A stretch of 64,000 nt of DNA from a virus. The stretch spans positions 1 through 64,000 of IMG/VR virus record IMGVR_UViG_3300033053_000017. One strand, given 5' to 3'. A program made the position numbers and the translations under genes. The notes under the pieces are model-generated. The model did no database searches and was not told the origin of the DNA. It worked only from the letters and a program-made list of their open reading frames with translations. The stretch's first letter is position 1; every line of letters begins with the position of its first letter. Below, piece by piece: positions 1-16,980 of the stretch.

Positions 1-5
1 CCACT

Positions 6-33
6 TTTACACCTCGCTTTCTTATGATATAAT
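6..33 (+). promoter_or_regulatory. Sigma-A-type promoter inside IR arm A
   Basis: TTTACA (6-11), 16-nt spacer, extended -10 TGaTATAAT (25-33). It reads rightward, convergent with recT. Confidence 0.6.
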
Positions 34-39
34 ATAAAT

Positions 40-224
40 ATATAACTAAGAGAAAACCGTTATTTAGGCACTCTTAGAGATTATAGAGTACACTCTATAG
101 TTTGCGGTGTTGTCAATCACCGTATCGTAACCTACGTTTGAGATGGGAGGTACTTTGTACCATGTACCATGTGTAGTAGAGTTACAAGCACCCACTTCAA
201 CGAAGTAAGTGGTGTGTCATTGAC
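40..224 (+). ncRNA. Candidate structured untranslated RNA (IR arm A transcript)
   Basis: Lies downstream of the promoter and has no SD-led ORF. Hairpins: 46-52/71-77, 82-88/93-99, 105-109/118-122, 149-153/157-161 (alternative partner 164-168), 189-197/207-216. Confidence 0.4.
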
Positions 225-267
225 GTTTGCCTCCTTTCAGGAGAGAGCATTTTGGATACTCTCTCAG

Positions 268-1212
268 TTAAAATCCTGGGCCTTCTTCATTGCCTAGCAT
301 ACTTTGTTGCCCTTGGATAACTTCTTCTTTGACTTCATTGGCTGGTGTTGGTTCTACATCAATTATCTTTTCTTCTTTTGATTCTTCTTCCTGAATATCT
401 ATAGGCTGAGTATTTGCCTTTTCTTTGATTTCTTCTTTGACTTCATATTCAACATTGTCAACCATATTAGATTTATCATACTTTTCATCATCATCTACAC
501 TTTGAGCATCATTGAAAGCTTCTATCAATACGTCGCTATCGTCTGAAGTATTTACAAACAGCTTACAGCAGCGGTTAATAACAGTCTTCTTCACCATTTG
601 ATCTGTAAAATTCTTATGTGCGCCACTATTGCCTTTTGCATAACCTTGATTCCAAGCTGCCCTTATTTGATTCATATTCATTACTTCAGTGTAGATTGGA
701 CCATGTTCACCCATAACCACAGCAAAAGCACCTTTGATTTTATTATTGTCTACATTCTCAAATTTAGGGTTAAACTTAGTTATCTTTAAGGTACATGTAT
801 CTAAGTCAAATTCCTGCTCAAATTCATCACCTTCGTAAATTACAAAAGCTTTTATATCTTTAACGCCTCTTAATCTTTTTGTAGCTGCTATAGTTCCCAT
901 GTAGGACCTCATAAGGGTTAGTTTCCCACCGTACACTACAAAATAAGCTTGTTTCTTGCTAATGGACAACCCTTGTATTACCATATTAAGAAGTGCATTA
1001 GCTATACTTTCTTTGCTGCATACTTGTAAAGCCGGTTGATGGTTTTTGTCCTCTGTTTCCTGAAGAACTAACCAAGCTGATTTTAAAGCATTAGCATAGC
1101 TGTAGTTTGCTGGAAACTGGAGATTGTTCTCCTTTTCCAAGTCCTTCACCCTATTTAACACTTGATCTGATAAGTTTTTTTCCATTGTAGTTATTGCTTT
1201 ATTATTTTCCAT
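268..1212 (-). CDS. recT: RecT-family single-strand annealing recombinase
   Basis: 314 aa. The core (NLQFPANYSYANALKSAWLVLQ...QAYFVVYGGKLTLMRSYMG) resembles RecT/Bet-type SSAPs from memory, with an acidic C-tail. It is the last gene of a recombination operon. Confidence 0.75.
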   Translation of the reverse strand: MENNKAITTMEKNLSDQVLNRVKDLEKENNLQFPANYSYANALKSAWLVLQETEDKNHQPALQVCSKESIANALLNMVIQGLSISKKQAYFVVYGGKLTLMRSYMGTIAATKRLRGVKDIKAFVIYEGDEFEQEFDLDTCTLKITKFNPKFENVDNNKIKGAFAVVMGEHGPIYTEVMNMNQIRAAWNQGYAKGNSGAHKNFTDQMVKKTVINRCCKLFVNTSDDSDVLIEAFNDAQSVDDDEKYDKSNMVDNVEYEVKEEIKEKANTQPIDIQEEESKEEKIIDVEPTPANEVKEEVIQGQQSMLGNEEGPGF

Positions 1213-1420
1213 TTTCTATTCCCTCCAATGTATTAATTTTTTCTTTAAAAGTTTTCATATCAACCCATGAAGATAAACAAAAATCTTCATGATATAATCT
1301 TATATTTAATTTATTGCCACGTTTGGCTATCAAGGTTTGCATTGGCAATTCAACGTATGCAACATTATTTTCATTTAGCATGTCTTTAAAATCATTAAAT
1401 TGTTTAGACAAATCTGCCAT
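1202..1420 (-). CDS. Hypothetical protein (72 aa)
   Basis: ORF tightly packed between the ATPase and recT, overlapping both neighbours by a few nt. Confidence 0.5.
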   Translation of the reverse strand: MADLSKQFNDFKDMLNENNVAYVELPMQTLIAKRGNKLNIRLYHEDFCLSSWVDMKTFKEKINTLEGIENGK

Positions 1421-3378
1421 TATAATTCCTTCCTCTCTATTTTAAGTTCTTTATCTTTACTTACTACTAAACATACCATTTGTGAATTGGTTGGTAGTAT
1501 ATCGTTGATGCTCTCAGCATTATCTACAAATACAGGAACTTCGATTTTATAATGATCTGATAGAGCAACTATAATATCTAAGCCTGCATTAATTCTCATG
1601 GCTGAGTTAAGACTTTCATATGGAACTCCATTAACCGTAGCTGTGCAGCACTCCTCCAAACCGCCATTTATCAAGCTATTAAACAATTTAAAGTTAACTA
1701 ATTTGAATTTATTGTTTATGCTGCTTTCCATAAGCTCAACTTTAGTTTTAATAAATTCCTCACATAAGAACTCTTGACCCTCTATTTTCGCTATCTGTTC
1801 CCCTAATGCTTTTTCCTGATCCATTAATTCTTGTATTCTAGCTTTTATAGTTTCATTTTGTTCTTTTGCCATAAGTTGCTTTTTAACTTCATCCATCTTG
1901 GCTGTAAATTCTTTTTTCTTATCTCTTAATTCTGAGGCTAAATTATTATTTTCTATTCCTTCAGATCCTTCAGTTATTAAAGCTTTCATGTAATCAATTT
2001 CCTTTAATAAGTTCTGATATTCTTCATTTTTACTTAATACATCTACTGGCTTAAATTCTGATATTGCAATTTCAATTCCTTTAACTTCGGCTGTAAGCTC
2101 CTTTATATCATTTTCTATGTTTCCTATTGCATTGTCTATGCCTTTTATATCCTCTTGAAGTTTTTCAATTGTAGTTTTGCCCTCTTTGCCTTTTTTGCCT
2201 ATGGCTGAAAGTTCTCTTGATTTATTTTGGTTGAAGTTTTCTACTATTTCAGCTTTTTTAGTTTCAACGTCATGTTCTTCGAATGGTCTGTTACATGTAG
2301 GACATATAAACTTAGATTCATCAAATATTAATGCTTTTTTATTAACTTCATGCCATTTTGCCCTTAATTCGTCGTTAGCCTTAGTTACATCGGCTATTGT
2401 ATTTTCACAAATTGTCTTCTTTTCAAATAGGTTATTTAGCTTATCTTCTGCTGATCTCAATTCATATTCTGCCTTTTGAAGCTTGGATTTTAATTCAAAT
2501 AGCGGTTTATCCTTATTGCTGTTAGCTTCGTTTTCTATAGCTTGTAATTTGCTTTGTAAGCCATATAATGCTTTTTGCTTTTCCAAAGTATCTTTAGCGA
2601 CTTTTCCATTGTCTAAAAGCTTATCTTCAATATCTTTTAAGTCATTTTCATAAGTCTGCAGTTGTTGTTCTAAATCTTTCCAATCATATTCATTCAGGGA
2701 GTTATTCAATTCATCTATTCTATAAGGTATTGATTTTATATCGTCATTAAGTTTCTTTCTCCTGGCTGCTGTACTTCTTTTTAATGTGTCAATGTCTTTA
2801 TCCTCTAGTAGCGGTGTCAATGCTCCTAATTCACTGTTATAATTAATTACTCTATCCTTTGTTATATCTCCAACTATGTCTAATATTACATTCCTTCTAT
2901 CCTGCCATTTTAGAACCGTATTAAAGTATAAAGGGTTGCTCACAAGCTTGAATAGTTTTTCATCAATTATGCTATTTATCTTATCCTGGTATTCACTTTT
3001 CTTAACTGGTACCTCATCTATATAATAAAGTGTTTCATGCCCTGTGAATTGCTTTTCTGCTTCTCCTTTTTTCTTAGTCCACTTTTCTTTAAAAGTTTTA
3101 GTTAGCGTTACTGGCTTCTCGTTGACCTCCAATACTGCGGTTACTGTATGTTCTAATCCATGAATAGCTTCGTTATTGCTATCTAGTGTTTTGATCTCAA
3201 AGTCCTTTCTGTCTTGGCTGTCTTTATCGAATAGTAACCAAAAGAATCCATCTGCTATAGTAGTTTTGCCTGTTGCGTTCTCTCCTGAGATAGAAGTTTT
3301 CTCCCCAAATTTTACGTCTAAGTCCTTAACTCCTTTAAAGTTTTTAAGAGTAAGACTTATAAGTTTTATTTTATTCAT
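1420..3378 (-). CDS. Rad50/SbcC-like SMC-family ATPase with zinc hook
   Basis: Walker A GENATGKTT near the N-terminus, a long coiled coil, a central CPTCNRPF (CxxC hook) and a C-terminal Walker B VPVFVDNAE. Confidence 0.8.
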   Translation of the reverse strand: MNKIKLISLTLKNFKGVKDLDVKFGEKTSISGENATGKTTIADGFFWLLFDKDSQDRKDFEIKTLDSNNEAIHGLEHTVTAVLEVNEKPVTLTKTFKEKWTKKKGEAEKQFTGHETLYYIDEVPVKKSEYQDKINSIIDEKLFKLVSNPLYFNTVLKWQDRRNVILDIVGDITKDRVINYNSELGALTPLLEDKDIDTLKRSTAARRKKLNDDIKSIPYRIDELNNSLNEYDWKDLEQQLQTYENDLKDIEDKLLDNGKVAKDTLEKQKALYGLQSKLQAIENEANSNKDKPLFELKSKLQKAEYELRSAEDKLNNLFEKKTICENTIADVTKANDELRAKWHEVNKKALIFDESKFICPTCNRPFEEHDVETKKAEIVENFNQNKSRELSAIGKKGKEGKTTIEKLQEDIKGIDNAIGNIENDIKELTAEVKGIEIAISEFKPVDVLSKNEEYQNLLKEIDYMKALITEGSEGIENNNLASELRDKKKEFTAKMDEVKKQLMAKEQNETIKARIQELMDQEKALGEQIAKIEGQEFLCEEFIKTKVELMESSINNKFKLVNFKLFNSLINGGLEECCTATVNGVPYESLNSAMRINAGLDIIVALSDHYKIEVPVFVDNAESINDILPTNSQMVCLVVSKDKELKIERKEL

Positions 3379-3404
3379 TTTTACATATCCCCTTTCCCTT
3401 TTAT

Positions 3405-3710
3405 CTAAACCTCATAATCCTCTTGAGTCTCCGCTATCAATAGTTCTCTTTCTTCCTTATCCTGCTTCATTAAGTCCTTAGTCATTTTAACCATTTGATC
3501 GTGATACTTCTCAGCATCCTTAAAGCTTATTCCTAATGACTTAGCAAGTTCGTTGATAGCATAAGCCCTGATATTATTGTCGTGTAGCTTCTCTGCATCA
3601 ACATATGGTATATCTTTAGTGATAGCTGTCTTAGCTATTTCAAAACACCTTTCGTTGTCTGCTTTTTTAAGGTTTGTAATATTTTTTATCATTAACTTTC
3701 CCCCACTCAC
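3405..3710 (-). CDS. Hypothetical protein
   Basis: ORF in the recombination operon. The real start is probably the internal Met at 3692 (MIKNITNL), which is preceded by a GGGGGA SD. Confidence 0.5.
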   Translation of the reverse strand: MSGGKLMIKNITNLKKADNERCFEIAKTAITKDIPYVDAEKLHDNNIRAYAINELAKSLGISFKDAEKYHDQMVKMTKDLMKQDKEERELLIAETQEDYEV

Positions 3711-3734
3711 TTATATTTTTACCTCTAAGCCTTT

Positions 3735-3875
3735 TTATTTTTTAAGTTTGTCTTGAAGCTTCATTGTTACGTAGGCATTTTTAGTTATACCTAGTTTTTT
3801 TATTTCTTCTTCGATCTTTTCATTTAATTCTGCTGGGATTCTAATTGAGAACTTTACAAAATTCTTATCTGTCAA
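3735..3875 (-). CDS. Ribbon-helix-helix (CopG/Arc-like) DNA-binding protein, first gene of the recombination operon
   Basis: Below the ORF-track size cutoff. TTG start 7 nt after GGAGG. 46 aa TDKNFVKFSIRIPAELNEKIEEEIKKLGITKNAYVTMKLQDKLKK shows a strand-helix-helix pattern. Confidence 0.55.
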   Translation of the reverse strand: MTDKNFVKFSIRIPAELNEKIEEEIKKLGITKNAYVTMKLQDKLKK

Positions 3876-3901
3876 TGTCTTTACCTCCCTTCCATGATTT
3901 T

Positions 3902-3930
3902 ATTGTATCACCCTTTTAGTTATTTGTCAA
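3902..3930 (-). promoter_or_regulatory. Promoter of the RHH/ATPase/RecT operon
   Basis: On the minus strand: TTGACA, 17 nt, TACAAT. Confidence 0.55.
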
Positions 3931-3995
3931 ACCTTTTTGCAATCTTTTTTCACCTCTATTTAATATTATTTTACCCTTTTTAAATCCTTTTATAC

Positions 3996-4025
3996 ATATA
4001 AAAAGGAACCTTTTTTCAAGGCTCC
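3996..4025 (-). terminator. Rho-independent terminator after the accessory-gene run
   Basis: Minus-sense GGAGCC-loop-GGUUCC hairpin followed by UUUUUAUAU. Confidence 0.55.
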
Positions 4026-4052
4026 TAGTACGTATTGTAGTTGAATTGCGAA

Positions 4053-4394
4053 TTAAGTATGTTGTTCATTAACTGCAATTAGTAGTCTGTTTAATTCATC
4101 ATAGTAGCCATTAGAGTAATGGAGATTGTTAAATCTTGATACCATATTTCTACCCTTGCACTTATTGACTTCTTTTATAAAATTACATATGTTTTTAAAA
4201 TAACATCCATGAACGCTTAACTCGTCTGTAGTCCATTTGTGGTTATCATCACATTTATGTCCTATGAGATACCATATCCCTCTATCTCCCCTGTAATCCA
4301 GTTGAAAAAACACATACTTATCTACATCAATTTCTACTATTGGATATTCAACCCAATCAATTGTCTGTCTTATACATTCTAAATTTAATTTCAT
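4053..4394 (-). CDS. Hypothetical protein (113 aa)
   Basis: Co-directional ORF with no motif I recognise. Confidence 0.55.
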   Translation of the reverse strand: MKLNLECIRQTIDWVEYPIVEIDVDKYVFFQLDYRGDRGIWYLIGHKCDDNHKWTTDELSVHGCYFKNICNFIKEVNKCKGRNMVSRFNNLHYSNGYYDELNRLLIAVNEQHT

Positions 4395-4481
4395 TACCTT
4401 TACTCCCTTCAGTTAATACGCATAATTTTCAGATTACGTTTTATTTGAGGTGGTTTTAAGATGCTTTTACCACCTCATAGA

Positions 4482-4670
4482 CTATTTTTTAATTGGTAAG
4501 TAGTCTGTTACTTTATTCCCATAAAGCCCTCGTTCTTCCGCTGTTCTATTTAATTTGTCCACATCTATTCTTTTAGGTAAAATTTCTTCCTTATCTCTAT
4601 AACAATAGTTGCTGTTTTCGTCCCAACAACCTTTAATCATTTCTGTGCAGTTTCTACAGTCCTTAGCCAT
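4482..4670 (-). CDS. Small Cys-rich hypothetical protein
   Basis: 62 aa with CRNC...C...C. Abuts the upstream ORF. Confidence 0.5.
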   Translation of the reverse strand: MAKDCRNCTEMIKGCWDENSNYCYRDKEEILPKRIDVDKLNRTAEERGLYGNKVTDYLPIKK

Positions 4671-4898
4671 TTATTGTCCCTCCAATTTTTTAAATAATGC
4701 TTCTATTAAAGTTGATTTGCCATGTTCAACATGTCCTATAACACCTATGTTTATTTTCTTTTTATGCTCATAATTTGTGCATTTCTTACCATTCCAAAAT
4801 GTACAATCTCTATAACAATCCCAATTGTTTATTCCTATACATATAGTACAATGTAGCCTTCCTTGTTTATCTTCACTGGTTTCGTTGCTATAGTTCAT
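4671..4898 (-). CDS. Cys-rich protein ending in an orphan translational-GTPase G1 (P-loop) motif
   Basis: 75 aa. The C-terminal INIGVIGHVEHGKSTLIEALFK resembles the GHVDHGKT/STL G1 box of EF-Tu/SelB-type GTPases, but the ORF stops straight after it. Confidence 0.5.
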   Translation of the reverse strand: MNYSNETSEDKQGRLHCTICIGINNWDCYRDCTFWNGKKCTNYEHKKKINIGVIGHVEHGKSTLIEALFKKLEGQ

Positions 4899-5029
4899 AA
4901 AATCACTCCTTCGCCTTTTTTAACTTTCTTATAACTAAAACCAGCATCTTTAATAGTTTTTTCAAATTCTTCATCAGTCATATTGTCAAACATCGAGTTT
5001 AATTCTTTTAATTTTTCTTCTTTATTCAA
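4895..5029 (-). CDS. Small hypothetical protein (44 aa, TTG start)
   Basis: AGGTGA SD then TTG. Its stop overlaps the next ATG (TTATGA). Below the track cutoff. Confidence 0.3.
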   Translation of the reverse strand: MNKEEKLKELNSMFDNMTDEEFEKTIKDAGFSYKKVKKGEGVIL

Positions 5030-5103
5030 AAAATTCACCTCATTTACTTCACATATTTATCAGTTCACTAATTAATTCTTATACAATATTTTCGAATTGT
5101 GGC

Positions 5104-5496
5104 TTACCATCCTGCAAATTCATGTAAATTTTCATATTCTTCCTTTGGCATTTCAAAGCATTTAAAAGTCAATCCTTCAATATCATACTTTTCACCAATA
5201 TTTAAATTCGATATTTTTTCTATGCAATCTTTTATATCAATATTCCATTCTTCACATTCATTAAAATCTTGCACCTCATTATTAAAATCCTTTGGATTCT
5301 TAGTACACCATCCAGTTTCATTGCAATAATAAATTTGATATAACTTAACCATATCATTAATAATTCTACTTTGTACTTTGCCACTAGGAGTAATAACATA
5401 ACCGCCACAATCGCATTTCATTCCATAATCTTTTGGTGTTGTATTGGATATATCATGTTCTTTATTACATGACCAACAATACGCTAAAATTTTCAT
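5104..5496 (-). CDS. Zinc-ribbon-containing hypothetical protein
   Basis: 130 aa with CWSC...CDCGG cysteine pairs. Confidence 0.55.
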   Translation of the reverse strand: MKILAYCWSCNKEHDISNTTPKDYGMKCDCGGYVITPSGKVQSRIINDMVKLYQIYYCNETGWCTKNPKDFNNEVQDFNECEEWNIDIKDCIEKISNLNIGEKYDIEGLTFKCFEMPKEEYENLHEFAGW

Positions 5497-5571
5497 TATT
5501 TAATCTCTCCCTTTTACTTCACAATATCTTCAGGTTGTGCATTTATCATTAAATTTTAAATATTGAGTGAA

Positions 5572-5844
5572 TTACCTATACAAACTTTCAACTATTTTTA
5601 TAACTTCTTCTTTTCTTAAGCCCAATCTTTGAATTTGAGAATTTAAATCTTTTTTAAATATATTTATTTCAGTCTTTTCAATGCTTGAATTACTGACTAT
5701 AAATCTCTCAACTAATGGTAATTCACTTTTACCAATCCATTTTAACCATGCCCCACAATCACCACAAATTAAAGCCTTTTGACTTCCTCTGTCATCAATA
5801 AATACATCTACACTACCACACTTAGTACAAGCATAATTTCTCAT
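5572..5844 (-). CDS. Zinc-ribbon-containing hypothetical protein
   Basis: 90 aa with CTKCGS...CGDCGA pairs. Confidence 0.55.
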   Translation of the reverse strand: MRNYACTKCGSVDVFIDDRGSQKALICGDCGAWLKWIGKSELPLVERFIVSNSSIEKTEINIFKKDLNSQIQRLGLRKEEVIKIVESLYR

Positions 5845-5888
5845 TTTAATACCTCCATTTACTTCACAATATAATCAAATTACGATTC

Positions 5889-6623
5889 TTATTCGGTCAA
5901 TCCTAAATCCATCATTGTGTCTAAATCTATTAAAGCTGCATCATAAAGTTCTTTTATATCATTTTCTAATATGAGTTTTACAAACTCAGTTCCTTTGTCT
6001 TCTGTCCACCCATGCCTTATAGATGTTCCCCAAGAGATAAAATTCGCATGATCCATAAGAATTATCAAGGAATAAGTCAGTGCCTCACTTTCTAGTTTTT
6101 CTTTTATCTGTTCCACATCATACACATAATAAGTCTTTTCGTTTTTAAAAGTACTGAAGGCATCTTTTAAACTTTTTAGTATAGGCATTTCCCCAGTACC
6201 ATAGCAATAGCAATTAAACTTTTCCCACAATGGATAGAATTTTAATATTAATTCTTTGTTTTTTAGCATAGTTTTCGCTTCACTTTTAACAGCATAAATA
6301 TAAAATTTTTTTATTTGAATGTTCTTATTAAATATATTCTTGTTTTCGATAAGTCCATCAAATTTAGCGGCTTCTCTTTCTATGTTTTCTTTTGTGGCAT
6401 CTTTTGAATATAAATCTATAAATAATAGCTTTGTTGAACCATCTATATATTCAATTAAAATTCGTCCACCTTCTTTAAAATGTTTGATAGCTTCTGGCTT
6501 AGGCACTTCTTTCCGTTCAAATTCAAGTGTTCCTTTAATAAAAGGTATGTCGAATTTTTTATCAAACTCTTCTGCACTACAGGTAACTTTACCCATAAAA
6601 TCATTTTTTAACACGATTGTCAC
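5889..6623 (-). CDS. Hypothetical protein (244 aa)
   Basis: Long co-directional ORF with no recognisable motif. Confidence 0.6.
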   Translation of the reverse strand: MTIVLKNDFMGKVTCSAEEFDKKFDIPFIKGTLEFERKEVPKPEAIKHFKEGGRILIEYIDGSTKLLFIDLYSKDATKENIEREAAKFDGLIENKNIFNKNIQIKKFYIYAVKSEAKTMLKNKELILKFYPLWEKFNCYCYGTGEMPILKSLKDAFSTFKNEKTYYVYDVEQIKEKLESEALTYSLIILMDHANFISWGTSIRHGWTEDKGTEFVKLILENDIKELYDAALIDLDTMMDLGLTE

Positions 6624-6748
6624 TCCTTATTATTTAGAATTTATTCTAGTAGTGTGTTTTCTCTCCTTAATTAATCACCTGTCCCACCGCTATAGCAACA
6701 CTTATTCCTGCTAATAGATATATTGCAATTTTTATTAGTTCCATACTA

Positions 6749-7027
6749 CTACTTCCCATATTCACTATTTATATAAAGCTTTGCATCTCTGCCATATCTA
6801 GGCGTTATGGTTATACTTGTATTACATTGAGCAACTATATATTCAGCTCCTGTTTCCGTATCTACATAAATGGATATAGTTCCATCTATAACATTCCCTT
6901 GACTGTATACCTGAATAAACTTATCATTACCGGCCTTGGCTGGTGTATCTGTGCAGCTGGTAAAAGCCATAACACTTAAAGTAACAACTCCCACTGCTAG
7001 CAATAGATTGATTATTTTATCTCTCAT
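6749..7027 (-). CDS. Putative lipoprotein
   Basis: Signal peptide MRDKIINLLLAVGVVTLSVMAFTSC with a lipobox-like FTSC. Confidence 0.55.
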   Translation of the reverse strand: MRDKIINLLLAVGVVTLSVMAFTSCTDTPAKAGNDKFIQVYSQGNVIDGTISIYVDTETGAEYIVAQCNTSITITPRYGRDAKLYINSEYGK

Positions 7028-9455: not shown

Positions 9456-9457
9456 AT

Positions 9458-9636: not shown

Positions 9637-9696
9637 TGAGGTAACAACATGGAGCTATGCTGTGACATAGTGTGGGTTCAAGTCCTACTATCTCAT
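9637..9696 (+). ncRNA. tRNA-like element lacking a D-arm (acceptor stem, one hairpin, canonical T-arm)
   Basis: The 7-bp acceptor TGAGGTA (9637-9643) pairs with TATCTCA (9689-9695). T-arm is GTGGG-TTCAAGT-CCTAC (9672-9688). Only 28 nt lie between, holding one hairpin (CTATG/CATAG). No encoded CCA. Confidence 0.3.
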
Positions 9697-9704
9697 ACAA
9701 GACA

Positions 9705-9726
9705 ATAGAGGGTTTTCACCCTCTAT
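9705..9726. terminator. Bidirectional terminator hairpin between the sRNA array and mob
   Basis: ATAGAGGG-TTTTCA-CCCTCTAT followed by TTTTATTT on the plus strand. It lies directly after the mob stop on the minus strand. Confidence 0.55.
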
Positions 9727-9727
9727 T

Positions 9728-10681
9728 TTATTTGCTCATAGTTTTATACCTCTTACCGCTAAAACCTCTCTTAAAAGCGTGCTTATTGTCATTCTGAAGT
9801 ACTTCCTCTTTGCCATTCATATTCTTTTTTAATTCCTCTATTATTTTCAATAAAGTTTTATTCTCCTGCTGAAGCTTTTCATTTGTTTCATCCTTCTGCC
9901 TATTCATGTGCTGGAATGATTTTAAAGTCTTATCCATGTAGTTTACTTTCATTTTAAGCATTTCTTCATGGGCCGCTTTAGCCTGTAAAGTTTGCATGTC
10001 TGTTTCTTTAGAGTTATTATTAATCCTTGCATACCAATTGCGAATGCTAACATGTTTTGCTTTGCTGTACCGGCATCCTCTCTGCATTACAGGAAAAACC
10101 TTCTGCATATGGTCTGCGTAACTATCCTGCATATCTCTTAAAGCCTGGTATCCGTTGAAATACTTATAGTTTTGCAAGGTATAGCAGCCTTTTTTCTCAT
10201 TCCATATCCGGGGTATTAAAAGGCAATGCAAATGTAATGTTGTTTCGTCATCATGGGCAAAAACCGCTCTTATATTATCTTTGAAAGTTTCCTGCAGCCA
10301 TTCCAAATTAGTGTTTTTCCATAATTCTATTTCCTGTTTTGACATGCCTTTAAAGAATTGAGGTGTAGCGGTCAATAACAATTCTCTGCCAATCACGCTG
10401 TTTTTATATATCTTTGTGTCTTTTAGATATTCTTTAGTATCTTCGTATAAATCATTGGATCCTAAAAGCTGCTCATTATATTTAAATCTCTCAGGATCCG
10501 CATTAGGTGTTTCCCTTTCTCTTTTCATATGTTTAACAAATCCTTTAATGGATGGAATTGTTTTGAACTTTTTCTCCGATACTCTGAAAATACAATAAAT
10601 GGGCATTTTGTTATTAAAAGCATAAGGCATATCTTTTCTGTATTCGTTGGTTACTTTTTCCTCTTTAAGTCTAGCATCCAT
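9728..10681 (-). CDS. mob: MobV (Mob/Pre family) relaxase
   Basis: HMKRERE matches MobM motif I (HNQRER). AHDDETTLHLHCLLIP matches the HxDE..PHxH motif III (VHNDEQTPHMHLGVVP in pMV158 MobM, recalled from memory). Confidence 0.8.
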   Translation of the reverse strand: MDARLKEEKVTNEYRKDMPYAFNNKMPIYCIFRVSEKKFKTIPSIKGFVKHMKRERETPNADPERFKYNEQLLGSNDLYEDTKEYLKDTKIYKNSVIGRELLLTATPQFFKGMSKQEIELWKNTNLEWLQETFKDNIRAVFAHDDETTLHLHCLLIPRIWNEKKGCYTLQNYKYFNGYQALRDMQDSYADHMQKVFPVMQRGCRYSKAKHVSIRNWYARINNNSKETDMQTLQAKAAHEEMLKMKVNYMDKTLKSFQHMNRQKDETNEKLQQENKTLLKIIEELKKNMNGKEEVLQNDNKHAFKRGFSGKRYKTMSK

Positions 10682-10700
10682 TTTCTCAACTCCTATTCAT

Positions 10701-11057
10701 TTAGTAAAAACTAATTATCAAGCTATTAGAAGAAGGATACATTGTATATTCCACTTCCCTATTAATAACCGAATTAAAATCAATCTTTTCGATCCCTTCC
10801 TTGTCTTTCAAATTCTTTTTAACAAAATTTACATAATTATTGATCTTTATGCTCTCCAAAAGTTCGTCTAAATCTTCATTTTCTGTAAGTTTAAATTTCA
10901 TTATAGATGGGAATATACAATTTTTTTTGCCACAAATTATTAACACATCTATATATTTCTTAAACCAATTGCAATCTTTTACAAACTTAACAAAACATTT
11001 CTTAATATCATCATTATTGGAATTGACTTTTATGTCTTTACAAAATATTCCTAACAT
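10701..11057 (-). CDS. Hypothetical protein (118 aa)
   Basis: ORF immediately upstream of mob on the same strand. Confidence 0.5.
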   Translation of the reverse strand: MLGIFCKDIKVNSNNDDIKKCFVKFVKDCNWFKKYIDVLIICGKKNCIFPSIMKFKLTENEDLDELLESIKINNYVNFVKKNLKDKEGIEKIDFNSVINREVEYTMYPSSNSLIISFY

Positions 11058-11063
11058 GAATAA

Positions 11064-11213
11064 TCATTCCTCCCTCTTTAACTGCTCCAATACTTTTTCA
11101 TACACACATTTGCTGCACTCAAAATAAACTGGACAACTATCACAACTTTCCTGACTTTCACAAAGTGATTTATACATTTCAAATAATTGTCTTACCAATT
11201 TGGTATCTACCAA
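11064..11213 (-). CDS. Small Cys-rich protein (49 aa, TTG start)
   Basis: TAAGGAGG SD 7 nt before the TTG. Contains CESQESCDSCPVYFECSKC. Below the track cutoff. Confidence 0.35.
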   Translation of the reverse strand: MVDTKLVRQLFEMYKSLCESQESCDSCPVYFECSKCVYEKVLEQLKREE

Positions 11214-11243
11214 GATTATTCCTCCTTAAAATTGATAAAAACG

Positions 11244-11277
11244 AGATATACAGGTTATAAAGATATACAGGTTATAA
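11244..11277. repeat. Perfect tandem 17-bp direct repeat (AGATATACAGGTTATAA x2) next to a nic-like motif; candidate oriT
   Basis: Read directly at 11244-11260 and 11261-11277. It is followed by ACACACTACT, whose minus-strand reading is AGTAGTGTGTTTATAAC. Confidence 0.9.
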
Positions 11278-11296
11278 ACACACTACTAAAATAATT

Positions 11297-11800
11297 TTAT
11301 TTAGCAAAACTTCTCTGATTATTATTAACTTTCCTGTTAAAATTATGCTTCACAATTTGATTCTCTTTTTTAATCTCGACTACTTTTTCCTTGTCTTTAT
11401 ACTTCTGGTTTTCTGTTGTAAGTCTATTATTTTCAGCAGTAAGTAACTTTAGTTCATTTTTGAGCTTTTCATTTTGCTTGCTAACATTATCTACAATATG
11501 ATTAACTGTATCTATAGATTTCTGTATGCTCTTATTTTCGCTTTTAAGAGTGTTGTTTAATTGAAGCATCCTTTCATATGCTAACTTGTATTTAACGTCT
11601 TCCTTGGCTTCTGTGTTAGTTTTAAGGATATTATTTTCTTTAGCTAAGTATTCCTTTCCTGATTCTAATTCCCTGATCTTTTCATTAAGTTCATATATCT
11701 TATCAAACAGAAACTCCTTGCTTACTGCATACATATACTGAACCTTACCTTTACTGATTTGTCGTAGTAAGATATTGTTTAGCTTTTCTTTAATTGACAT
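11297..11800 (-). CDS. Coiled-coil protein (possible relaxosome accessory)
   Basis: 167 aa, heptad-rich with a basic tail. Lies between the T4CP gene and the oriT-like repeat. Confidence 0.55.
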   Translation of the reverse strand: MSIKEKLNNILLRQISKGKVQYMYAVSKEFLFDKIYELNEKIRELESGKEYLAKENNILKTNTEAKEDVKYKLAYERMLQLNNTLKSENKSIQKSIDTVNHIVDNVSKQNEKLKNELKLLTAENNRLTTENQKYKDKEKVVEIKKENQIVKHNFNRKVNNNQRSFAK

Positions 11801-11801
11801 T

Positions 11802-13256
11802 TTACTGGCCCTCCTTCATATTCTTATTTAAAAGCATTGCTTTGTCTTCATAGTATCTATACTGCTTCGCTAATATTGGTTTTAAGTTTTGGGATATAAT
11901 AAGAACTTCATCTTTTTTTAGCCTTCTAATTTCATCAGGAGTAAACACATTTTTTTTCATCTTTACAGTTCTATTGCCCTGCACTATAGGAATCTCCTTA
12001 TCACCATTTAGTGTTGTAAATTCTCTTAACATTTCTACCTCTGAATAAGCTGGTAAGATGCACTTCGTCTGCATAGCATTTAAAATTGATCTAGTTCCAT
12101 TCCTTCCGTATACATCAATCAACGCTGAAACAGATTGTAGGACAAGTAGGAAAGCATAATTTGACTCTCTTGAACTATTTACTGTTTGTGCTAAGGTTGG
12201 TATTCTGCCTAGGTTTTGCGCTTCGTCTAAAAGCCAAACAATGTTATTTTTATTGTTATCATAATACTTTTTACATTTTTCTATTAATTGGGTATACATG
12301 ATGCTCATTAATGGGGAAAGATAGTTTGAATCTTCAGGGAAGTATTTAATGTAAAGAGAAACCCTTTCATCTCTTAACATTTTATAATTAAAGTCTGAAT
12401 AGCTTGTTTTAGATGCTATCTGAGGGTCAAGCCAAAACTTTGTATTTGTTGCTAGTGTACTTAATATAGATGTTAATGGTCCACCACTGCTGTCTTCATC
12501 CTGTGGAACTGACATATTGAAAATGTTGAATTGTTTTACAACATTTTGATTTTTAGAATTACCAAATACTATTTCTATGTCTTCTGGTTCATTACTAATT
12601 AAAAAATCCACCGCTTCAGATATTGTGTTGTGTGGCCTTTTTAAATCTTTATGATAAAACAAGCTTGCCGCTAAAAGTGCTGTAGCTGCTTGAATCCAAA
12701 AAGCATCATTGCTGCTAAAACTTCCACCGCCATTACCTGAATCCAGTTTGATTGCTAGTGTTCCAGACATAAGAATGTCTTTTGCTAGTTTCTCTACTTC
12801 TGAATAAGTTTCTGCCCATTCTAAAGGGTTATAATGTCCATGTGTGCCTAGCGGTTCAAATAAAAATATTTTTCTGCCTATGCTTTTTTGATAACATGAT
12901 GTGTCTCTCCATAGTTCTCCTTTAGAATCATTGATTACTATGCTTGTATTTATAGGAAAATGATTAATTAGAAGCTGAGTATACACAAACGGAGTAGTTT
13001 TGTGCTGCCCTGGAGGGCCTATAACAATTACATTTTGCAATGAAGATTTCCAACTTAATTGATATTTTTTACCGATTTTATTTTTTCCAATTATAAAACC
13101 ATCTTTGCCTTTAATGTCTTCTAAGTCATTAGTAACTCCACCTGTAGCACTCTTAGTTCTACCTTCAAAAACAATTGGTATAGCAGCACTAGCAGCGCAA
13201 AAAGCCATCCCAGCGTAAAAAACCTTGTTTATTAATTCCATATCTAATCCATACAT
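11802..13256 (-). CDS. Type IV coupling protein (TraG/TraD/VirD4 family)
   Basis: N-terminal TM segment, Walker A GPPGQHKTT, and WLLDEAQNLGRIP...LLVLQSVSALIDVYG, which matches the TraG-D_C / TraM-recognition region. Confidence 0.8.
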   Translation of the reverse strand: MYGLDMELINKVFYAGMAFCAASAAIPIVFEGRTKSATGGVTNDLEDIKGKDGFIIGKNKIGKKYQLSWKSSLQNVIVIGPPGQHKTTPFVYTQLLINHFPINTSIVINDSKGELWRDTSCYQKSIGRKIFLFEPLGTHGHYNPLEWAETYSEVEKLAKDILMSGTLAIKLDSGNGGGSFSSNDAFWIQAATALLAASLFYHKDLKRPHNTISEAVDFLISNEPEDIEIVFGNSKNQNVVKQFNIFNMSVPQDEDSSGGPLTSILSTLATNTKFWLDPQIASKTSYSDFNYKMLRDERVSLYIKYFPEDSNYLSPLMSIMYTQLIEKCKKYYDNNKNNIVWLLDEAQNLGRIPTLAQTVNSSRESNYAFLLVLQSVSALIDVYGRNGTRSILNAMQTKCILPAYSEVEMLREFTTLNGDKEIPIVQGNRTVKMKKNVFTPDEIRRLKKDEVLIISQNLKPILAKQYRYYEDKAMLLNKNMKEGQ

Positions 13257-13347
13257 ATAAACACTCCATTTAATTATTTTTTATGAATAATAAATTATGT
13301 ACTGGGCATAATAATAGTATCGAATAAAACAAAAGGAGATGATTTTT

Positions 13348-13416
13348 ATGTATATAATCGTAGCCGGAGGATTATTAACTTATGCCGGATATTGTATATA
13401 TCAAATTTTGATGTAG
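13348..13416 (+). CDS. Possible 22-aa hydrophobic peptide
   Basis: AAAGGAG SD 9 nt before the ATG. Sequence MYIIVAGGLLTYAGYCIYQILM. It lies antisense to the T4CP operon leader. Confidence 0.25.
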   Translation: MYIIVAGGLLTYAGYCIYQILM

Positions 13417-13483
13417 TATACTTACTACTACTTTTAATATATTCTATGATTATAGATTTAAAATTGATACAAAAATTTGCAAA

Positions 13484-13516
13484 TTAAAAACCACCAGTTA
13501 TTAATTTACTGGTGGT
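13484..13516 (-). terminator. Rho-independent terminator of the HTH gene
   Basis: 9-bp stem ACCACCAGT/ACTGGTGGT overlapping the stop, followed by UUUUUAAUUU on the minus strand. Confidence 0.6.
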
Positions 13517-13704
13517 TCATCATAGTTATATTCAATTATTTTATTTTTCTCTTTGTACCACCTATCTACATCAGCCACCACAAAAATTACGCTTCTTCCT
13601 CTCCTCTTGAAAGGCATTCCCTTCTTCATATATCTTTCTATAGTAGTACGACTAACGCTATAATATTCACACAAATCCTTAACAGTACATTCTTTCTTTT
13701 CCAT
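13501..13704 (-). CDS. Excisionase/MerR-type (HTH_17-like) DNA-binding protein
   Basis: 67 aa. CTVKDLCEYYSVSRTTIERYMKKGMPF...VDRW fits the Xis/AlpA-type winged helix. The gene is monocistronic. Confidence 0.65.
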   Translation of the reverse strand: MEKKECTVKDLCEYYSVSRTTIERYMKKGMPFKRRGRSVIFVVADVDRWYKEKNKIIEYNYDEPPVN

Positions 13705-13780
13705 CTTATCGCCCCCTAATACAATATATGCAACATCTTATAAATAATTGCAAAAATAATTTTAAAAAAGTATGCAACAT

Positions 13781-13809
13781 TTAGCAATGTGATACATAGT
13801 ATGTAATAT
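13781..13809 (+). promoter_or_regulatory. Candidate promoter of the plus-strand cassette
   Basis: TTAGCA, 17 nt, TAATAT. A 10-mer TATGCAACAT is repeated at 13727-13736 and 13771-13780. Confidence 0.4.
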
Positions 13810-13841
13810 AAAGATTTAAAAATTAAAAAGGGGATATGTAA

Positions 13842-14078
13842 ATGAAAACATTCAGATTCAATAGAGAAGGGCTAAATCAATGTATGGCATATACAGATTA
13901 TAAAGAAATAGCTAAAGAGATGCTTGAAAACAACCCTCAGATACTCCCAATGGTATTAATAGGTGTATTAGGTCTGTCAATATTTTTAATAAGTCCTGGT
14001 GCATCACAAGTCGCATATAAGGCGTCCTTAGATGATACAACATCTATTATCGCATTTAAATTTTTAGGAGGTTTTTAA
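13842..14078 (+). CDS. Small membrane protein (78 aa)
   Basis: GGGGA SD and a central TM segment ILPMVLIGVLGLSIFLISPG. First gene of the only plus-strand operon. Confidence 0.55.
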   Translation: MKTFRFNREGLNQCMAYTDYKEIAKEMLENNPQILPMVLIGVLGLSIFLISPGASQVAYKASLDDTTSIIAFKFLGGF

Positions 14079-14081
14079 TAT

Positions 14082-14297
14082 ATGGATAATTTAATAAGCG
14101 GAATGATATTAGTTGAGAAAACATACGGAGATTTGCACTTGCTTTGTGCTACTCCTTATGGCTGGAAAGTGGTTGATGCAAATGGGAGTTATATCGAATT
14201 TGATCCTAGCAATTATTCAAAGGCTTATATTCCTGAAAGTTACGAAGATCCTTGGACACCATTAGCAGGCACGATAAAAGGAGGAGAAAGTATCTAA
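14082..14297 (+). CDS. Hypothetical protein (71 aa)
   Basis: Begins 3 nt after the previous stop, with an AGGAGG SD. Confidence 0.55.
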   Translation: MDNLISGMILVEKTYGDLHLLCATPYGWKVVDANGSYIEFDPSNYSKAYIPESYEDPWTPLAGTIKGGESI

Positions 14298-14497
14298 TGG
14301 AGATAACAAAATACTTGCAATTCCAAGGGAAGGAACTAGAGATTGATTCTTTAGAAAAAGAAGTTAAAGGCATATGGAAGAAACAAGGCAAGCTATTAAA
14401 AGATATAAAGGCATTGAAGTTGTATATAAAGGTTGAGGAAGGTATGTGTTACTATATAATAAATGATACTTATAATGGGAGTTTTTCAATAGAGTAG
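14297..14497 (+). CDS. Hypothetical protein (66 aa; internal start of track ORF 14252..14497)
   Basis: ATG at 14297 preceded by AGGAGG and overlapping the upstream stop (TAATG). Confidence 0.5.
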   Translation: MEITKYLQFQGKELEIDSLEKEVKGIWKKQGKLLKDIKALKLYIKVEEGMCYYIINDTYNGSFSIE

Positions 14498-14513
14498 GTT
14501 TTGAGCCTACTCT
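14491..14513. terminator. Terminator hairpin between convergent genes
   Basis: AGAGTAGG-loop-CCTACTCT followed by ATGTTATTTT on the plus strand. It lies 4 nt from the minus-strand holin stop. Confidence 0.55.
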
Positions 14514-14516
14514 ATG

Positions 14517-15005
14517 TTATTTTGCTTGTATATTAGTTGCTGCAGTATTCACTTGGTCGGTAACTATAGAAGGACTAATCAAAGGAGTTAATTCAGTCCC
14601 ATCTGGTGCGACATATTTTGTTACAGGTGTTACTGTGATTTGTTGAATAGTCTGTTGTTCTGTTTCTTTTACAGCTTCTTTACATTTATTAACTTCTCCT
14701 GCTATTGCTTGTCTTACTAAATTAATTTCTGCATCTGTTATGCTAGGGAATTGTTGCTTTATCATAGCTTCAAAAGTATTAATCTTAGTATCTGCTAGGT
14801 TCCCTAGCCTTGCATCTTCTTCAATTGCACTAAAAATATCTGCTGCAACAGTTTTTAATTTTCCGTAATTAGCAAATCCTGCTTTAGCAATCAATAGCTT
14901 AACAGCACTAGGAACTACTTTTTTAATCTCATAAACTAAAAAACCACTAACACCGGTAACAACATAAGGTATTGCCGCATTAATTAAACTTGTTAAATCA
15001 ACCAT
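14517..15005 (-). CDS. Holin-like protein (LL-H type architecture)
   Basis: N-terminal TM (IPYVVTGVSGFLVY) followed by a soluble helical region. Downstream of the amidase. Confidence 0.5.
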   Translation of the reverse strand: MVDLTSLINAAIPYVVTGVSGFLVYEIKKVVPSAVKLLIAKAGFANYGKLKTVAADIFSAIEEDARLGNLADTKINTFEAMIKQQFPSITDAEINLVRQAIAGEVNKCKEAVKETEQQTIQQITVTPVTKYVAPDGTELTPLISPSIVTDQVNTAATNIQAK

Positions 15006-15179
15006 TTAAATATCCACTTCCTTTTTATCTATTTCTATTTGTATTATGTACTTATCTTCTTTTATCTGCATTTTCACCTTTGCACCTTTTAATTCCCTTC
15101 TTGCCAATTCTTTGTATATAGCATAGAGAGAAACATTTTTAAGCGGGCTGGAATAACCGCTGTTAAAAGTATGCCCCAT
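15006..15179 (-). CDS. Small hypothetical protein (57 aa)
   Basis: AGAGGTGG SD and ATG at 15179. Fills the gap between the amidase and the holin. Below the track cutoff. Confidence 0.35.
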   Translation of the reverse strand: MGHTFNSGYSSPLKNVSLYAIYKELARRELKGAKVKMQIKEDKYIIQIEIDKKEVDI

Positions 15180-15191
15180 AAAACCACCTCT

Positions 15192-16025
15192 TTAAAACAA
15201 TCTTTTAGAACCGCCTTGGCCCTTATTATTATTCCAAAATACTTCAGGTGCGCCGCCTTTTCTTAAAGTCACATAATTACCTCTATCTAAATGAACACCC
15301 ATGTCACCATCTGCTCTTTTTTCAATATAAAAGCCTGTGTCACCTAAAGGGAAAATATTAGGCCCAGTTGGTATACTTTCGTCATAAGTTGGTGCTTTCT
15401 GTGTGGTAGTTTGACTTGTTGTTGCTTGTACTGTTTGCCCTGTTAAGGCTTGAACTATTGCGTTTGCTATTTTATCACTACCTAATGAGTTATATAAATC
15501 TGCATCTGATTGAGTATCCACAAAACATACTTCTATCAATATTGCTACTGGGCTACTATGTCTTATAACATATAAACCGCTACCATCTTTTACGCCACGA
15601 TTAACAAAGCCCAATGCTACTAGATTAGTTAAAACTTTAGAGGCTAAAGCTTTTCCAGCAGCACTCATAGCAAATACTTCTGTCCCTTTTCCTTTTCCTG
15701 CGTTTAAATGAATAGAAACTAAATAATCGGTTCCACTTGCAGCATCACATCTTCTTTGTAAACTATCTGTAACACTTGAAGCCTTGGTTGGTCTTGTATT
15801 CCATGCTGTATGTCCTAAAGCTTCTAATTTAGATATAACTTTGTTAACTATATCTAAAGAACAATCTTGTTCATTTAAATACCCTTCTGCTCCTGTATCT
15901 GGATAAATTCCATGTGCTGCATCTATAGAAAACTTACTCATGTTTTCCAACATCTCCTTTTTTTGAATTGCCCAAACAGGCATATGTACGATCATCAATT
16001 CGAGATATTCTTCTTTGATTTTCAA
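15192..16025 (-). CDS. N-acetylmuramoyl-L-alanine amidase endolysin (Amidase_3 type)
   Basis: SIDAAHG...LVSIHLNAGKGKGTEVF...PVAILIEVCFVDT motifs. The probable true start is the Met at 15941 (MSKFSIDAAHG), which overlaps the holin stop as ATGAGTAA. Confidence 0.9.
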   Translation of the reverse strand: MKIKEEYLELMIVHMPVWAIQKKEMLENMSKFSIDAAHGIYPDTGAEGYLNEQDCSLDIVNKVISKLEALGHTAWNTRPTKASSVTDSLQRRCDAASGTDYLVSIHLNAGKGKGTEVFAMSAAGKALASKVLTNLVALGFVNRGVKDGSGLYVIRHSSPVAILIEVCFVDTQSDADLYNSLGSDKIANAIVQALTGQTVQATTSQTTTQKAPTYDESIPTGPNIFPLGDTGFYIEKRADGDMGVHLDRGNYVTLRKGGAPEVFWNNNKGQGGSKRLF

Positions 16026-16281
16026 CAGCTATCTCTAAAATTGTGTCCAATTTATTATTTGTTTCTTTCTGATCCTTGTCATTAGTAACCATTTCTCTGG
16101 TCAATGTTGTTACTAATGTGTCTATTTTGTCACACAGTTTGTCTACCTTTTTATCACTTGATGTGATAACTTTACCGTTTTGCCTTGAATTTAGAATTAC
16201 GCTTATTAAAACTATTAATAAGGCTGCCCCTGCAATTCCTAACTGTAAATATCCATTTGTAATTGTATCTGTTACCGGCAT
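15934..16281 (-). CDS. BhlA/UviB-like holin
   Basis: One N-terminal TM (LQLGIAGAALLIVLISVIL) plus a charged coiled-coil tail. Directly upstream of the endolysin. Confidence 0.5.
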   Translation of the reverse strand: MPVTDTITNGYLQLGIAGAALLIVLISVILNSRQNGKVITSSDKKVDKLCDKIDTLVTTLTREMVTNDKDQKETNNKLDTILEIAVENQRRISRIDDRTYACLGNSKKGDVGKHE

Positions 16282-16301
16282 GGTCCACCTCCATTGTAAG
16301 T

Positions 16302-16352
16302 AAAAAAGAGTGGTATACTTACTACTATTCTTTAAGTAAATAATACCACTCT
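16302..16352 (-). terminator. Leader terminator/attenuator upstream of the holin gene
   Basis: 10-bp stem AGAGTGGTAT/ATACCACTCT with a 26-nt structured loop, followed by U6 on the minus strand, 20 nt before the holin SD. Confidence 0.6.
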
Positions 16353-16377
16353 TTACAAATGTTTGCTACAGGTTTAA

Positions 16378-16405
16378 TTTATAATGTTCTTGAATTGCAT
16401 GTCAA
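16378..16405 (-). promoter_or_regulatory. Candidate promoter just upstream of the leader terminator
   Basis: Minus strand TTGACA, 16 nt, TATAAA. Confidence 0.45.
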
Positions 16406-16563
16406 TCTTCATCTACATATTCAAAACCATTTTGCTTTCCCTCTGCTTTCAACTCAATTAACGCTCTATTAAAAAAACAGGTTTCATCAAGAATAGTGCC
16501 ATCTTTAAGCTTTACATAGTGTTCAAATTTTTCAATTTCACGTCCACAATCTTTACATCTCAT
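16402..16563 (-). CDS. Small Cys-containing protein (53 aa)
   Basis: GAGGTGA SD. Sequence MRCKDCGREIEKFEHYVKLKDGTILDETCFF... It is the first ORF downstream of IR arm B. Confidence 0.4.
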   Translation of the reverse strand: MRCKDCGREIEKFEHYVKLKDGTILDETCFFNRALIELKAEGKQNGFEYVDED

Positions 16564-16657
16564 GGTATCACCTCGATTCACATTTTATTCAAATTACGTC
16601 ATTACTTTTATAGTGCCACAACTTTATGTTCTATAATTTATAACATAAAAAAGAGCT

Positions 16658-16841
16658 GTCAATGACACACCACTTACTTCGTTGAAGTGGGTGCTTGTAA
16701 CTCTACTACACATGGTACATGGTACAAAGTACCTCCCATCTCAAGCGTAGGCTACGATACGGTGATTGACAACACCGCAAACTATAGAGTGTACTCTATA
16801 ATCTCTAAGAGTGCCTAAATAACGGTTTTCTCTTAGTTATA
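16658..16841 (-). ncRNA. Candidate structured leader/sRNA (IR arm B transcript)
   Basis: Same hairpin set as arm A. The conserved part is followed by CUCUUUUUUAU (about 16645-16655). Confidence 0.4.
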
Positions 16842-16847
16842 TATTTA

Positions 16848-16875
16848 ATTTTATCATAAGAAAGTGAGGTGTAAA
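16848..16875 (-). promoter_or_regulatory. Sigma-A-type promoter inside IR arm B
   Basis: Minus strand TTTACA, 16 nt, TGaTAAAAT. It reads toward the small ORF and the lysis cassette. Confidence 0.6.
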
Positions 16876-16980
16876 AGTGGTAAGTATAAGAAGTTGCTTG
16901 TCAGCAAGTGGCAATTCCTCCCCCACTTTAGAAGTAGAAGTATCCTTGCCACGAATGGATGAAAGCTATAGCTCTTAATA

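Follow-up and report, generated by a model that had tools for sequence, protein, structure and literature searches.

Inverted repeats on a 64-kb phage sequence as probable copies of an IS200/IS605-family mini-element with a guide-RNA scaffold

Introduction

The 64,000-nt stretch of viral DNA analysed here (positions 1 to 64,000 of the IMG/VR record IMGVR_UViG_3300033053_000017, called the window below) opens with a sequence whose reverse complement recurs at 16658-16880. What are these two arms, and does their inverted layout serve to flip the 16.4-kb block of lysis, plasmid and recombination genes between them? A preliminary description of the window proposed the arms as substrates for such an inversion, and offered a duplicated regulatory cassette or scars left by acquisition of the block as alternatives. 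In our analysis the arms are very probably two oppositely oriented copies of a mini-element of the IS200/IS605 family, in which tnpB was lost and both ends, a promoter and a guide-RNA scaffold were kept. As a selfish element it is a further member of the known PATE type bearing omega RNA, and not a new class of system.

The repeat unit and its relatives

Global alignment of positions 1-224 with the reverse complement of 16658-16880 (224 against 223 nt, end to end) gave about 98% identity. All four substitutions and the single 1-nt indel of the preliminary description were reproduced exactly (arm-A positions: G/A at 16, T/A at 30, indel at 34, A/G at 130, T/C at 137), and the similarity is far above chance expectation. 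It was found in a repeat scan of the whole window that this pair is the sole long inverted repeat, with 190 nt ungapped at 99% complementarity and a spacing of 16,433 nt. On the inner side the identity breaks off sharply past CATTGAC in the arms, as had been described. On the outer side, position 16880 is no true edge. The arm B unit extends to 16958 and is preceded, on its own (minus) strand, by TTCAT at 16959-16963, and window position 1 is the equivalent of 16880 and lies inside the left end (LE) of the unit, where arm A is clipped by the window start. The earlier suspicion that arm A might be longer was well founded, and the true repeat unit is a 301-bp element, intact in copy B.

The identity of the element was revealed by its relatives on plasmids. 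BLASTN of the 224-nt unit, which the preliminary description had suggested, gave in the phage database only weak 58-nt matches to Enterococcus phages in the AT-rich promoter part, which we judged spurious, and gave matches next to Clostridium tnpB genes among the plasmids. In the megablast search against plasmids, arm positions 86-193 were about 90% identical to the DNA starting from the stop codon of genes annotated as "RNA-guided endonuclease TnpB" on C. botulinum and C. sporogenes plasmids, and positions 16689-16964 matched as two pieces 1.39 kb apart with the tnpB gene between them. Scans of metagenome and genome collections with a 22-mer core added one full-length element each (L006 from a JGI metagenome and L007 from C. 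magnum) and no mini copies. The four full-length elements (L001, L002, L006 and L007) measure 1,382-1,412 bp and encode a 380-aa tnpB with no tnpA. They share identical termini with the window copies, namely TTCAT|CCAATCGTGGCAAGG at the LE and ATTGAC| at the right end (RE), and the window element is 81-89% identical to them over the LE (16856-16963) and 78-88% over the RE (16658-16796; 86-224 in copy A).

From this comparison the layout of both copies can be read. Copy B (16658-16958, minus strand) is the complete 301-bp element and consists of an LE of 103 nt (16856-16958), a remnant of about 60-75 nt from the 3' part of tnpB, and the scaffold and RE ending at 16658. Copy A (1-224, plus strand) closes with its RE at 224 (...CATTGAC); its homology is to the DNA just 3' of annotated tnpB. 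Relative to the 1.4-kb parent type, about 1.1 kb is deleted internally, which is almost the entire tnpB. The 301-bp element contains one 43-aa chance open reading frame (ORF) and no other, and tblastn of the family TnpB against the window gave no match. Both ends carry subterminal hairpins, but they are unrelated in sequence and there are no terminal inverted repeats, as in PATEs. The LE hairpin of copy B (16908-16952, minus strand; GTGGCAA...TTGCCAC with an inner stem) is kept in the full-length copies and is the expected TnpA recognition structure; the RE hairpin lies at 188-217 in copy A and at the equivalent position in copy B. The deletion is identical in both window copies, which sit at unrelated sites, and therefore the mini-element itself has transposed at least once after the deletion. 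A different kind of loss was seen on the C. botulinum plasmid pCBG (L010:430-700), where a tnpB copy keeps tnpB and the RE/omega-RNA region without the LE hairpin and the TTCAT-adjacent terminus; this copy is probably immobilised.

Insertion sites

TTCAT adjoins the LE at all five independent insertion sites, including copy B (16959-16963, minus strand), as a target or transposon-adjacent motif. Vacant sites were sought with a query representing the predicted empty NlpC/P60|SSB site, built from the insertion in L001 and L011-L013 and searched in the plasmid collection. This predicted site was recovered as a single contiguous match in 9 Clostridium plasmids at 97.6-99.4% identity. The exact joint TTCAT|ATTGTAAAG occurs in 3 of the 5 vacant sites read, and the remaining two have TTTAT or TTAAT. 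Filled and vacant sites together show that the family inserts 3' of TTCAT with no target duplication, and this behaviour is what distinguishes the IS200/IS605 elements that a Y1 TnpA moves. The real vacant sites come from these Clostridium plasmids, and those of the window copies were obtained by in-silico reconstruction only. The altered motifs TTTAT and TTAAT stand at the exact insertion point in L014 and L016 (pRSJ11_1 and pCBG), unlike L015, L017 and L018; variants of this kind should escape re-insertion as well as cleavage by TnpB.

Copy B appears to have split a transcription terminator. When it was excised in silico, AAGAGCTATAGCTTTCAT joined AGCTCTTTTTTATG, which yields a hairpin with a perfect stem of 9 bp, a loop of 7 nt and six U behind it; in the shuffle control, 1 of 200 sequences folded as well. 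The 5' half of the hairpin is AAGAGCTAT (16968-16976, minus strand), which without the element pairs with AT plus AGCTCTT (16959-16960 and 16651-16657), followed by TTTTTT. Since the stem returns only with exactly the boundaries given above, these boundaries are supported by the reconstruction. The restored terminator stands directly after the 102-aa ORF that ends the late operon, and copy B lies in its loop. In our searches, the 102-aa protein encoded upstream of copy B matched only itself. Across the other junction, the RE terminus of copy B and its flank make up a promoter-like sequence at 16635-16662 (minus strand; TTGACA, 16 nt, TAAATT) that faces the lysis cassette. This site and the split terminator could alter read-through into the lysis genes.

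Copy A lies 43 nt past the stop codon of the RecT gene (268-1212, minus strand; PF03837, E = 1.6e-39). What should follow RecT is found at the opposite end of the window, where 63476-64000 (minus strand) is the 3' part of a gene of the metallo-beta-lactamase fold (MBL-fold) with 62-75% tblastn identity to the genes after RecT in L003 and L005. In those two relatives the MBL-fold gene starts with ATGAA and comes directly after RecT. Because the homologue of the RecT neighbour sits at the opposite window end, we take the genome to be circular or circularly permuted. The first 67 codons (201 nt) of the MBL-fold gene lie beyond the right window end. On the gene strand, the flank of copy A reads ...AAGGAGGCAAAC|element, and the ribosome-binding site (RBS) AAGGAGG of the displaced downstream gene is found at 230-236 on the minus strand. 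The LE needs a preceding TTCAT, which is ATGAA on the gene strand, and so the vacant site would read AAGGAGGCAAACATGAA; in this reconstruction, AAGGAGGCAAAC|ATGAA, the RBS is ideally spaced from the start codon. Copy A thus appears, from the sequences on its two sides, to sit between RecT and the MBL-fold gene and to part that gene from its RBS. By arithmetic, an MBL start codon at 64,201 and the 78 missing LE bases would give a circular genome of about 64,279 bp. An identical RecT has a single database record, on a JGI contig of 64,378 nt; the surplus of 99 nt would be roughly what a k-mer overlap leaves in a circular assembly. The RecT relatives (L003, L005, L008 and L009) are too distant, and their RecT/MBL junction differs from that of the window.

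A putative guide-RNA gene within the element

The omega RNAs of TnpB are encoded at the 3' end of tnpB, which they overlap, and reach to the boundary of the RE (PMC10055086). In L001, L002, L006 and L007 a conserved fold occupies just this position: it begins about 60 nt ahead of the tnpB stop codon and ends with the RE. The corresponding omega-RNA-like scaffold of copy A spans 46-224 (plus strand), with stems P1 (46-52/71-77), P2 (79-88/93-102) and P3 (103-109/118-124), a central multi-stem domain and the terminal RE hairpin at 188-217. Folding gave the same architecture for the mini-element and a full-length copy, with minimum free energy z-scores of -3.3 and -5.9, respectively. In the consensus fold, 17 of the 55 pairs show compensatory changes on both sides, several of them in P1 and P2, although the 6 sequences effectively represent about 4 lineages and the statistical power is modest. 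In P1 and P2 the mini copies have diverged from the full-length copies and yet are still paired. Two of the arm-to-arm substitutions fall within the scaffold; one changes an A-U pair to G-U and the other is in an unpaired column. A covariance model built from the alignment (R1) found exactly two matches in the window, 41-225 at 203 bits and 16657-16841 at 201 bits. We also noticed that the P3 loop (GTCAAT, 112-117) and the 3' end (ATTGAC, 219-224) are complementary in all six copies. The two could form an omega-RNA pseudoknot, but because both segments are invariant, covariation gives it no support.

Directly upstream of the scaffold, both copies carry a promoter-like site. In copy A (6-33, plus strand) it consists of TTTACA, a 16-nt spacer and TATAAT, with TG ahead of this -10 hexamer (11 of 12 matches), and in copy B (16848-16875, minus strand) of TTTACA, a 16-nt spacer and TAAAAT with TG (10 of 12). 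The -35 hexamer belongs to the LE. The -10 hexamer derives from what is left of the 3' part of tnpB, TGATAGAAT, a sequence conserved throughout the full-length copies. To judge by these hexamers, the deletion junction itself appears to have created a near-consensus promoter in front of the scaffold.

Beyond the conserved RE end, the predicted guide segment of copy A is GTTTGCCTCCTTTCAG (225-240, plus strand). We call it a guide because its position directly after the RE end resembles that in TnpB omega RNAs (PMC10055086). The predicted guide of copy B is AGCTCTTTTTTATGTT (16642-16657, minus strand), and it doubles as the 3' half and T-run of the split terminator. Elsewhere in the window the guide sequences have chance-level matches with 3 mismatches only. 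The element is therefore predicted to be a compact mobile unit of ends, promoter and guide-RNA scaffold, with adjacent phage DNA as its guides.

Gene content of the window

The window encodes a major head protein, a portal, large and small terminase and tail proteins, and its early region (47-64 kb) holds genes of replication and nucleotide metabolism. The content of the bracketed block is broadly as the preliminary description had it. Besides RecT, we identified a Rad50-like ATPase (1420-3378), a Mob_Pre relaxase (9728-10681), a type IV coupling protein (T4CP; 11802-13256) and an amidase endolysin (15192-16025), all on the minus strand. Nearly all genes of the window lie on this strand, including the lysis, T4CP/Mob_Pre, Rad50-like/RecT, structural and replication modules, and neither GC nor AT skew changes sign across the block or the window. 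The circular order is RecT, copy A, MBL-fold gene, replication, packaging, head, tail, a giant ORF, copy B, lysis, plasmid-like module and Rad50-like/RecT. Among the 60 window ORFs scanned, there was no invertase, integrase, transposase, resolvase or tyrosine recombinase domain.

Several other features of the window were recorded. This phage genome carries T4CP and the Mob_Pre relaxase (9728-13256, minus strand) with no integrase found among the scanned ORFs, and its closest RecT relatives (cf. L003 and L005) are prophages with serine integrases, which suggests a mobilisable phage-plasmid lifestyle. Between a Rep-like ORF (8192-8896) and the relaxase gene, two 63-nt direct repeats of promoter-like AT-rich sequence (9329-9391 and 9445-9507) are 73% identical; they may be what the preliminary description called an sRNA array, or an iteron region. 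At the end of the tail and late operon, just upstream of copy B, the giant ORF (17341-27849, minus strand) encodes 3,502 aa in a single frame, and its central part matches phage DNA-methyltransferase-like PHROG families. The ORF at 27862-29382 (506 aa) has no family match; it contains three diverged tandem copies with a 54-nt period at 28157-28344 and, within 28946-29313, a 113-nt direct repeat 255 nt apart, and it is probably a repetitive tail or receptor-binding protein. In the early region, a small ORF at 48357-48680 (minus strand) matches the N-terminal domain of the ArdC anti-restriction factor (E = 7e-8), and several DNA methyltransferases are found near it, including those at 53119-54147 and 54682-55140.

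Discussion

We propose the following origin. A 1.4-kb tnpB-only Clostridium insertion sequence would have suffered the internal deletion of about 1.1 kb, leaving a mini-element with the LE and its hairpin, the junction promoter, the last 60-75 nt or so of the tnpB region and the entire scaffold to the RE. A host-encoded Y1 TnpA would then have carried it, as a single strand and by "peel and paste", to TTCAT sites in the phage or phage-plasmid, whose genome would be a circle of about 64.3 kb. These would be two independent insertions, one in the loop of the late-operon terminator and the other between the RBS and the ATGAA start of the MBL-fold gene. Each copy would express an omega RNA guided by the adjoining phage DNA, and in a host with a cognate TnpB the complex would cut element-free alleles (TTCAT plus guide), favouring retention or homing, as shown for related systems (PMC10055086). 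The inverted layout would be a by-product of the two insertions; an occasional homologous inversion is conceivable, but not a switch.

Some of our results weigh against this interpretation. Neither tnpA nor tnpB was found in the window (60 ORFs scanned; tblastn with the family TnpB), and so mobilisation and RNA use rest on an unseen host. Further copies of the mini-element were not found in the phage database, the plasmids, IMG/VR (27-mer core scan) or the metagenome and genome collections (22-mer scans); in particular, the conserved 27-mer core had no match in IMG/VR, and megablast of window positions 1-20000 against the phage database gave none either. Searches of the phage database and for homologues of the 102-aa protein and RecT did not find a close phage relative with a vacant site. 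The left end of copy A falls outside the window. With respect to the RNA, the whole window gave no match to Rfam 15 at gathering scores, and 16600-17000 gave no meaningful match up to E = 10, although Rfam may lack this scaffold type. The compensatory changes may stem from the full-length ancestor, in which case they show an intact scaffold and not necessarily current selection. Finally, the T-run 6 nt into the copy B guide could end the RNA too early for targeting.

Against this background, other explanations have to be compared with two copies of a mini-element. The first accepts the copies as functionless for the phage and supposes that RecA or RecT sometimes recombines them, so that a minority of genomes is flipped. 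About 300 bp at 98% identity in inverted orientation, on a replicon that encodes RecT, could in principle support such homologous recombination, and inversions mediated by insertion sequences are common in bacteria. To this extent the inversion-substrate claim of the preliminary description stands. However, after a flip the lysis genes would no longer be coupled to the late operon, nor RecT to the MBL-fold gene downstream of it, so that flipped isomers are probably counter-selected; moreover, the arms have not been homogenised. We regard incidental inversion as possible, though rather doubtful.

The second explanation is that the arms are inert relics, namely transposon remnants in decay, with an RNA that is neither produced nor put to use and a fold that is only an inheritance from a recent full-length ancestor. 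It would account for the missing TnpB and TnpA in the window, for there being just two known copies, for the T-run in the copy B guide and for the lack of an Rfam match. On the other hand, each of the copies has kept its two ends, the TnpA hairpins and a complete scaffold, the scaffold substitutions keep a pair or hit an unpaired position, a near-consensus junction promoter lies directly upstream of the scaffold in each, and at least one transposition has taken place since the deletion. Inertness is unlikely on this evidence, but it deserves to be kept in view.

At the other extreme, the phage-borne guide-RNA genes might serve as a weapon or gene drive, with the cognate TnpB of a Clostridium host steered to sibling phages, co-infecting or resident, that lack the insertions (TTCAT + GTTTGCCTCCTTTCAG or TTCAT + AGCTCTTTTTTATGTT), so that rivals are destroyed or converted, and the inverted pair might also let the genome isomerise. 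We consider this speculative and improbable. If true, the guide-RNA genes would be the counterpart, on a phage and free of protein, of viral mini-CRISPR arrays.

The remaining part of the earlier inversion claim, a programmed segment whose arms are switch sites that flip the 16.4-kb lysis, plasmid and recombination block relative to the late operon to give two functional isomers, fared badly. The arms are indeed long, inverted and 98% identical, and a RecT recombinase is encoded beside arm A, but they are complete, asymmetric LE-to-RE transposon copies with their own target motif, of 300 bp against the tens of bp of known invertase sites. No invertase or integrase was found among the 60 scanned ORFs; the late, lysis, plasmid, Rad50-like/RecT, MBL-fold and replication genes are co-linear on one strand with uniform skew, and five arm differences remain without homogenisation. 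A dedicated switch is thus highly improbable. An assembly artefact, in which one arm is a spurious duplicate from repeat resolution or chimeric joining of metagenome paths, is suggested by a metagenome contig on which the window, and perhaps the contig itself, begins inside the repeat, but it is extremely improbable since the arms differ at five positions, each has a distinct and biologically sensible insertion site, and the map forms a consistent circle, with RecT at the left end of the window and the MBL-fold gene at the right.

Several further candidates were rejected. Transposition of the IS605 type is strand-specific, and a composite transposon does not fit, since the inverted copies place LE and RE on opposite strands and each copy has its own intact TTCAT (for copy A, the outer flank lies beyond the window). 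An IStron was excluded by the absence of a group I intron match to Rfam in the window and by the LE of the full-length relatives, which reaches only about 136 nt before the tnpB start. A site-specific inversion system was set aside because no recombinase gene occurs among the 60 ORFs and because each repeat is a copy of a transposon. We also considered, and rejected, telomere-like or terminal repeats of a linear replicon. As to the other alternatives of the preliminary description, the duplicated regulatory cassette was a near miss, as each copy does carry a promoter-like site and a structured RNA gene, but the transposon identity was overlooked. Scars of block acquisition do not agree with a separate clean TTCAT target for each copy, one of which split a terminator hairpin and the other parted an RBS from its start codon.

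An unsupported idea, a 16-kb invertible phage-plasmid module, is thereby replaced by a concrete and checkable identity. The locus would be a natural case of a 301-bp mobile unit of promoter and guide RNA split from its nuclease on a phage genome, and it lends support to the view, already in the literature, of omega RNAs and TnpB as modules able to act in trans. For the clostridial TnpB family, the analysis adds the TTCAT motif, exact element boundaries and a covariance model. It also points to places where a compact phage genome tolerates such elements, namely the loop of a terminator and an operon junction; one of the insertions parts a gene from its RBS. The phage location with no nuclease or transposase found, the deletion-junction promoter and the insertion between RBS and start codon are mildly notable.

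Relation to other elements

The ISDra2 and IS608 systems of TnpA, TnpB and omega RNA are reportedly those of Karvelis (2021) and Altae-Tran (2021); see also PMC10055086. The window element resembles them in its expected mechanism, which is single-strand transposition 3' of a 4-5-nt motif, an omega RNA that ends at the RE and takes its guide from the flank, and cleavage of the vacant joint by TnpB. It differs from them in the motif, which is TTCAT instead of TTGAT or TTAC, and in having no linked nuclease or transposase; furthermore, the window family is known from sequence alone.

The invertible G- and C-segments of phages Mu and P1 (Gin, Hin and Cin) and the shufflons also have inverted repeats around a block of phage DNA. 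Those systems rely on short sites with a serine or tyrosine recombinase encoded next to them, and what they invert are tail-fibre genes, whereas the window has 301-bp transposon copies, no recombinase found and a 16.4-kb block of several operons.

The nearest relatives in sequence are the full-length tnpB-only insertion sequences of Clostridium (C. botulinum and C. sporogenes plasmids and C. magnum; TnpB WP_003362366.1, 380 aa), which have the same termini, TTCAT motif and RNA fold. Compared with these, the mini-element is missing about 1.1 kb, compensatory changes accompany the divergence of its P1 and P2 stems, and its P1 loop is shorter.

In type, it corresponds to the PATEs. Non-autonomous, PATE-like members of the IS200/IS605 family whose omega RNAs are used in trans were described in Geobacillus stearothermophilus (Meers et al. 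2023, PMC10055086), a clostridial precedent is the C. difficile PATE with IStron ends (bioRxiv 10.1101/2023.11.20.567912), and haloarchaeal PATEs are also known (PMC3119063). Like them, the window element has subterminal hairpins at LE and RE, no protein gene, a conserved motif at the LE, no target duplication and a scaffold for a TnpB encoded elsewhere. Unlike them, it comes from another sequence family (that of the Clostridium tnpB-only insertion sequence with the TTCAT motif), it is present as two inverted copies on a Clostridium-type phage or phage-plasmid genome where tnpA and tnpB were not found, and its near-consensus promoter appears to have been set upstream of the scaffold by the deletion junction.

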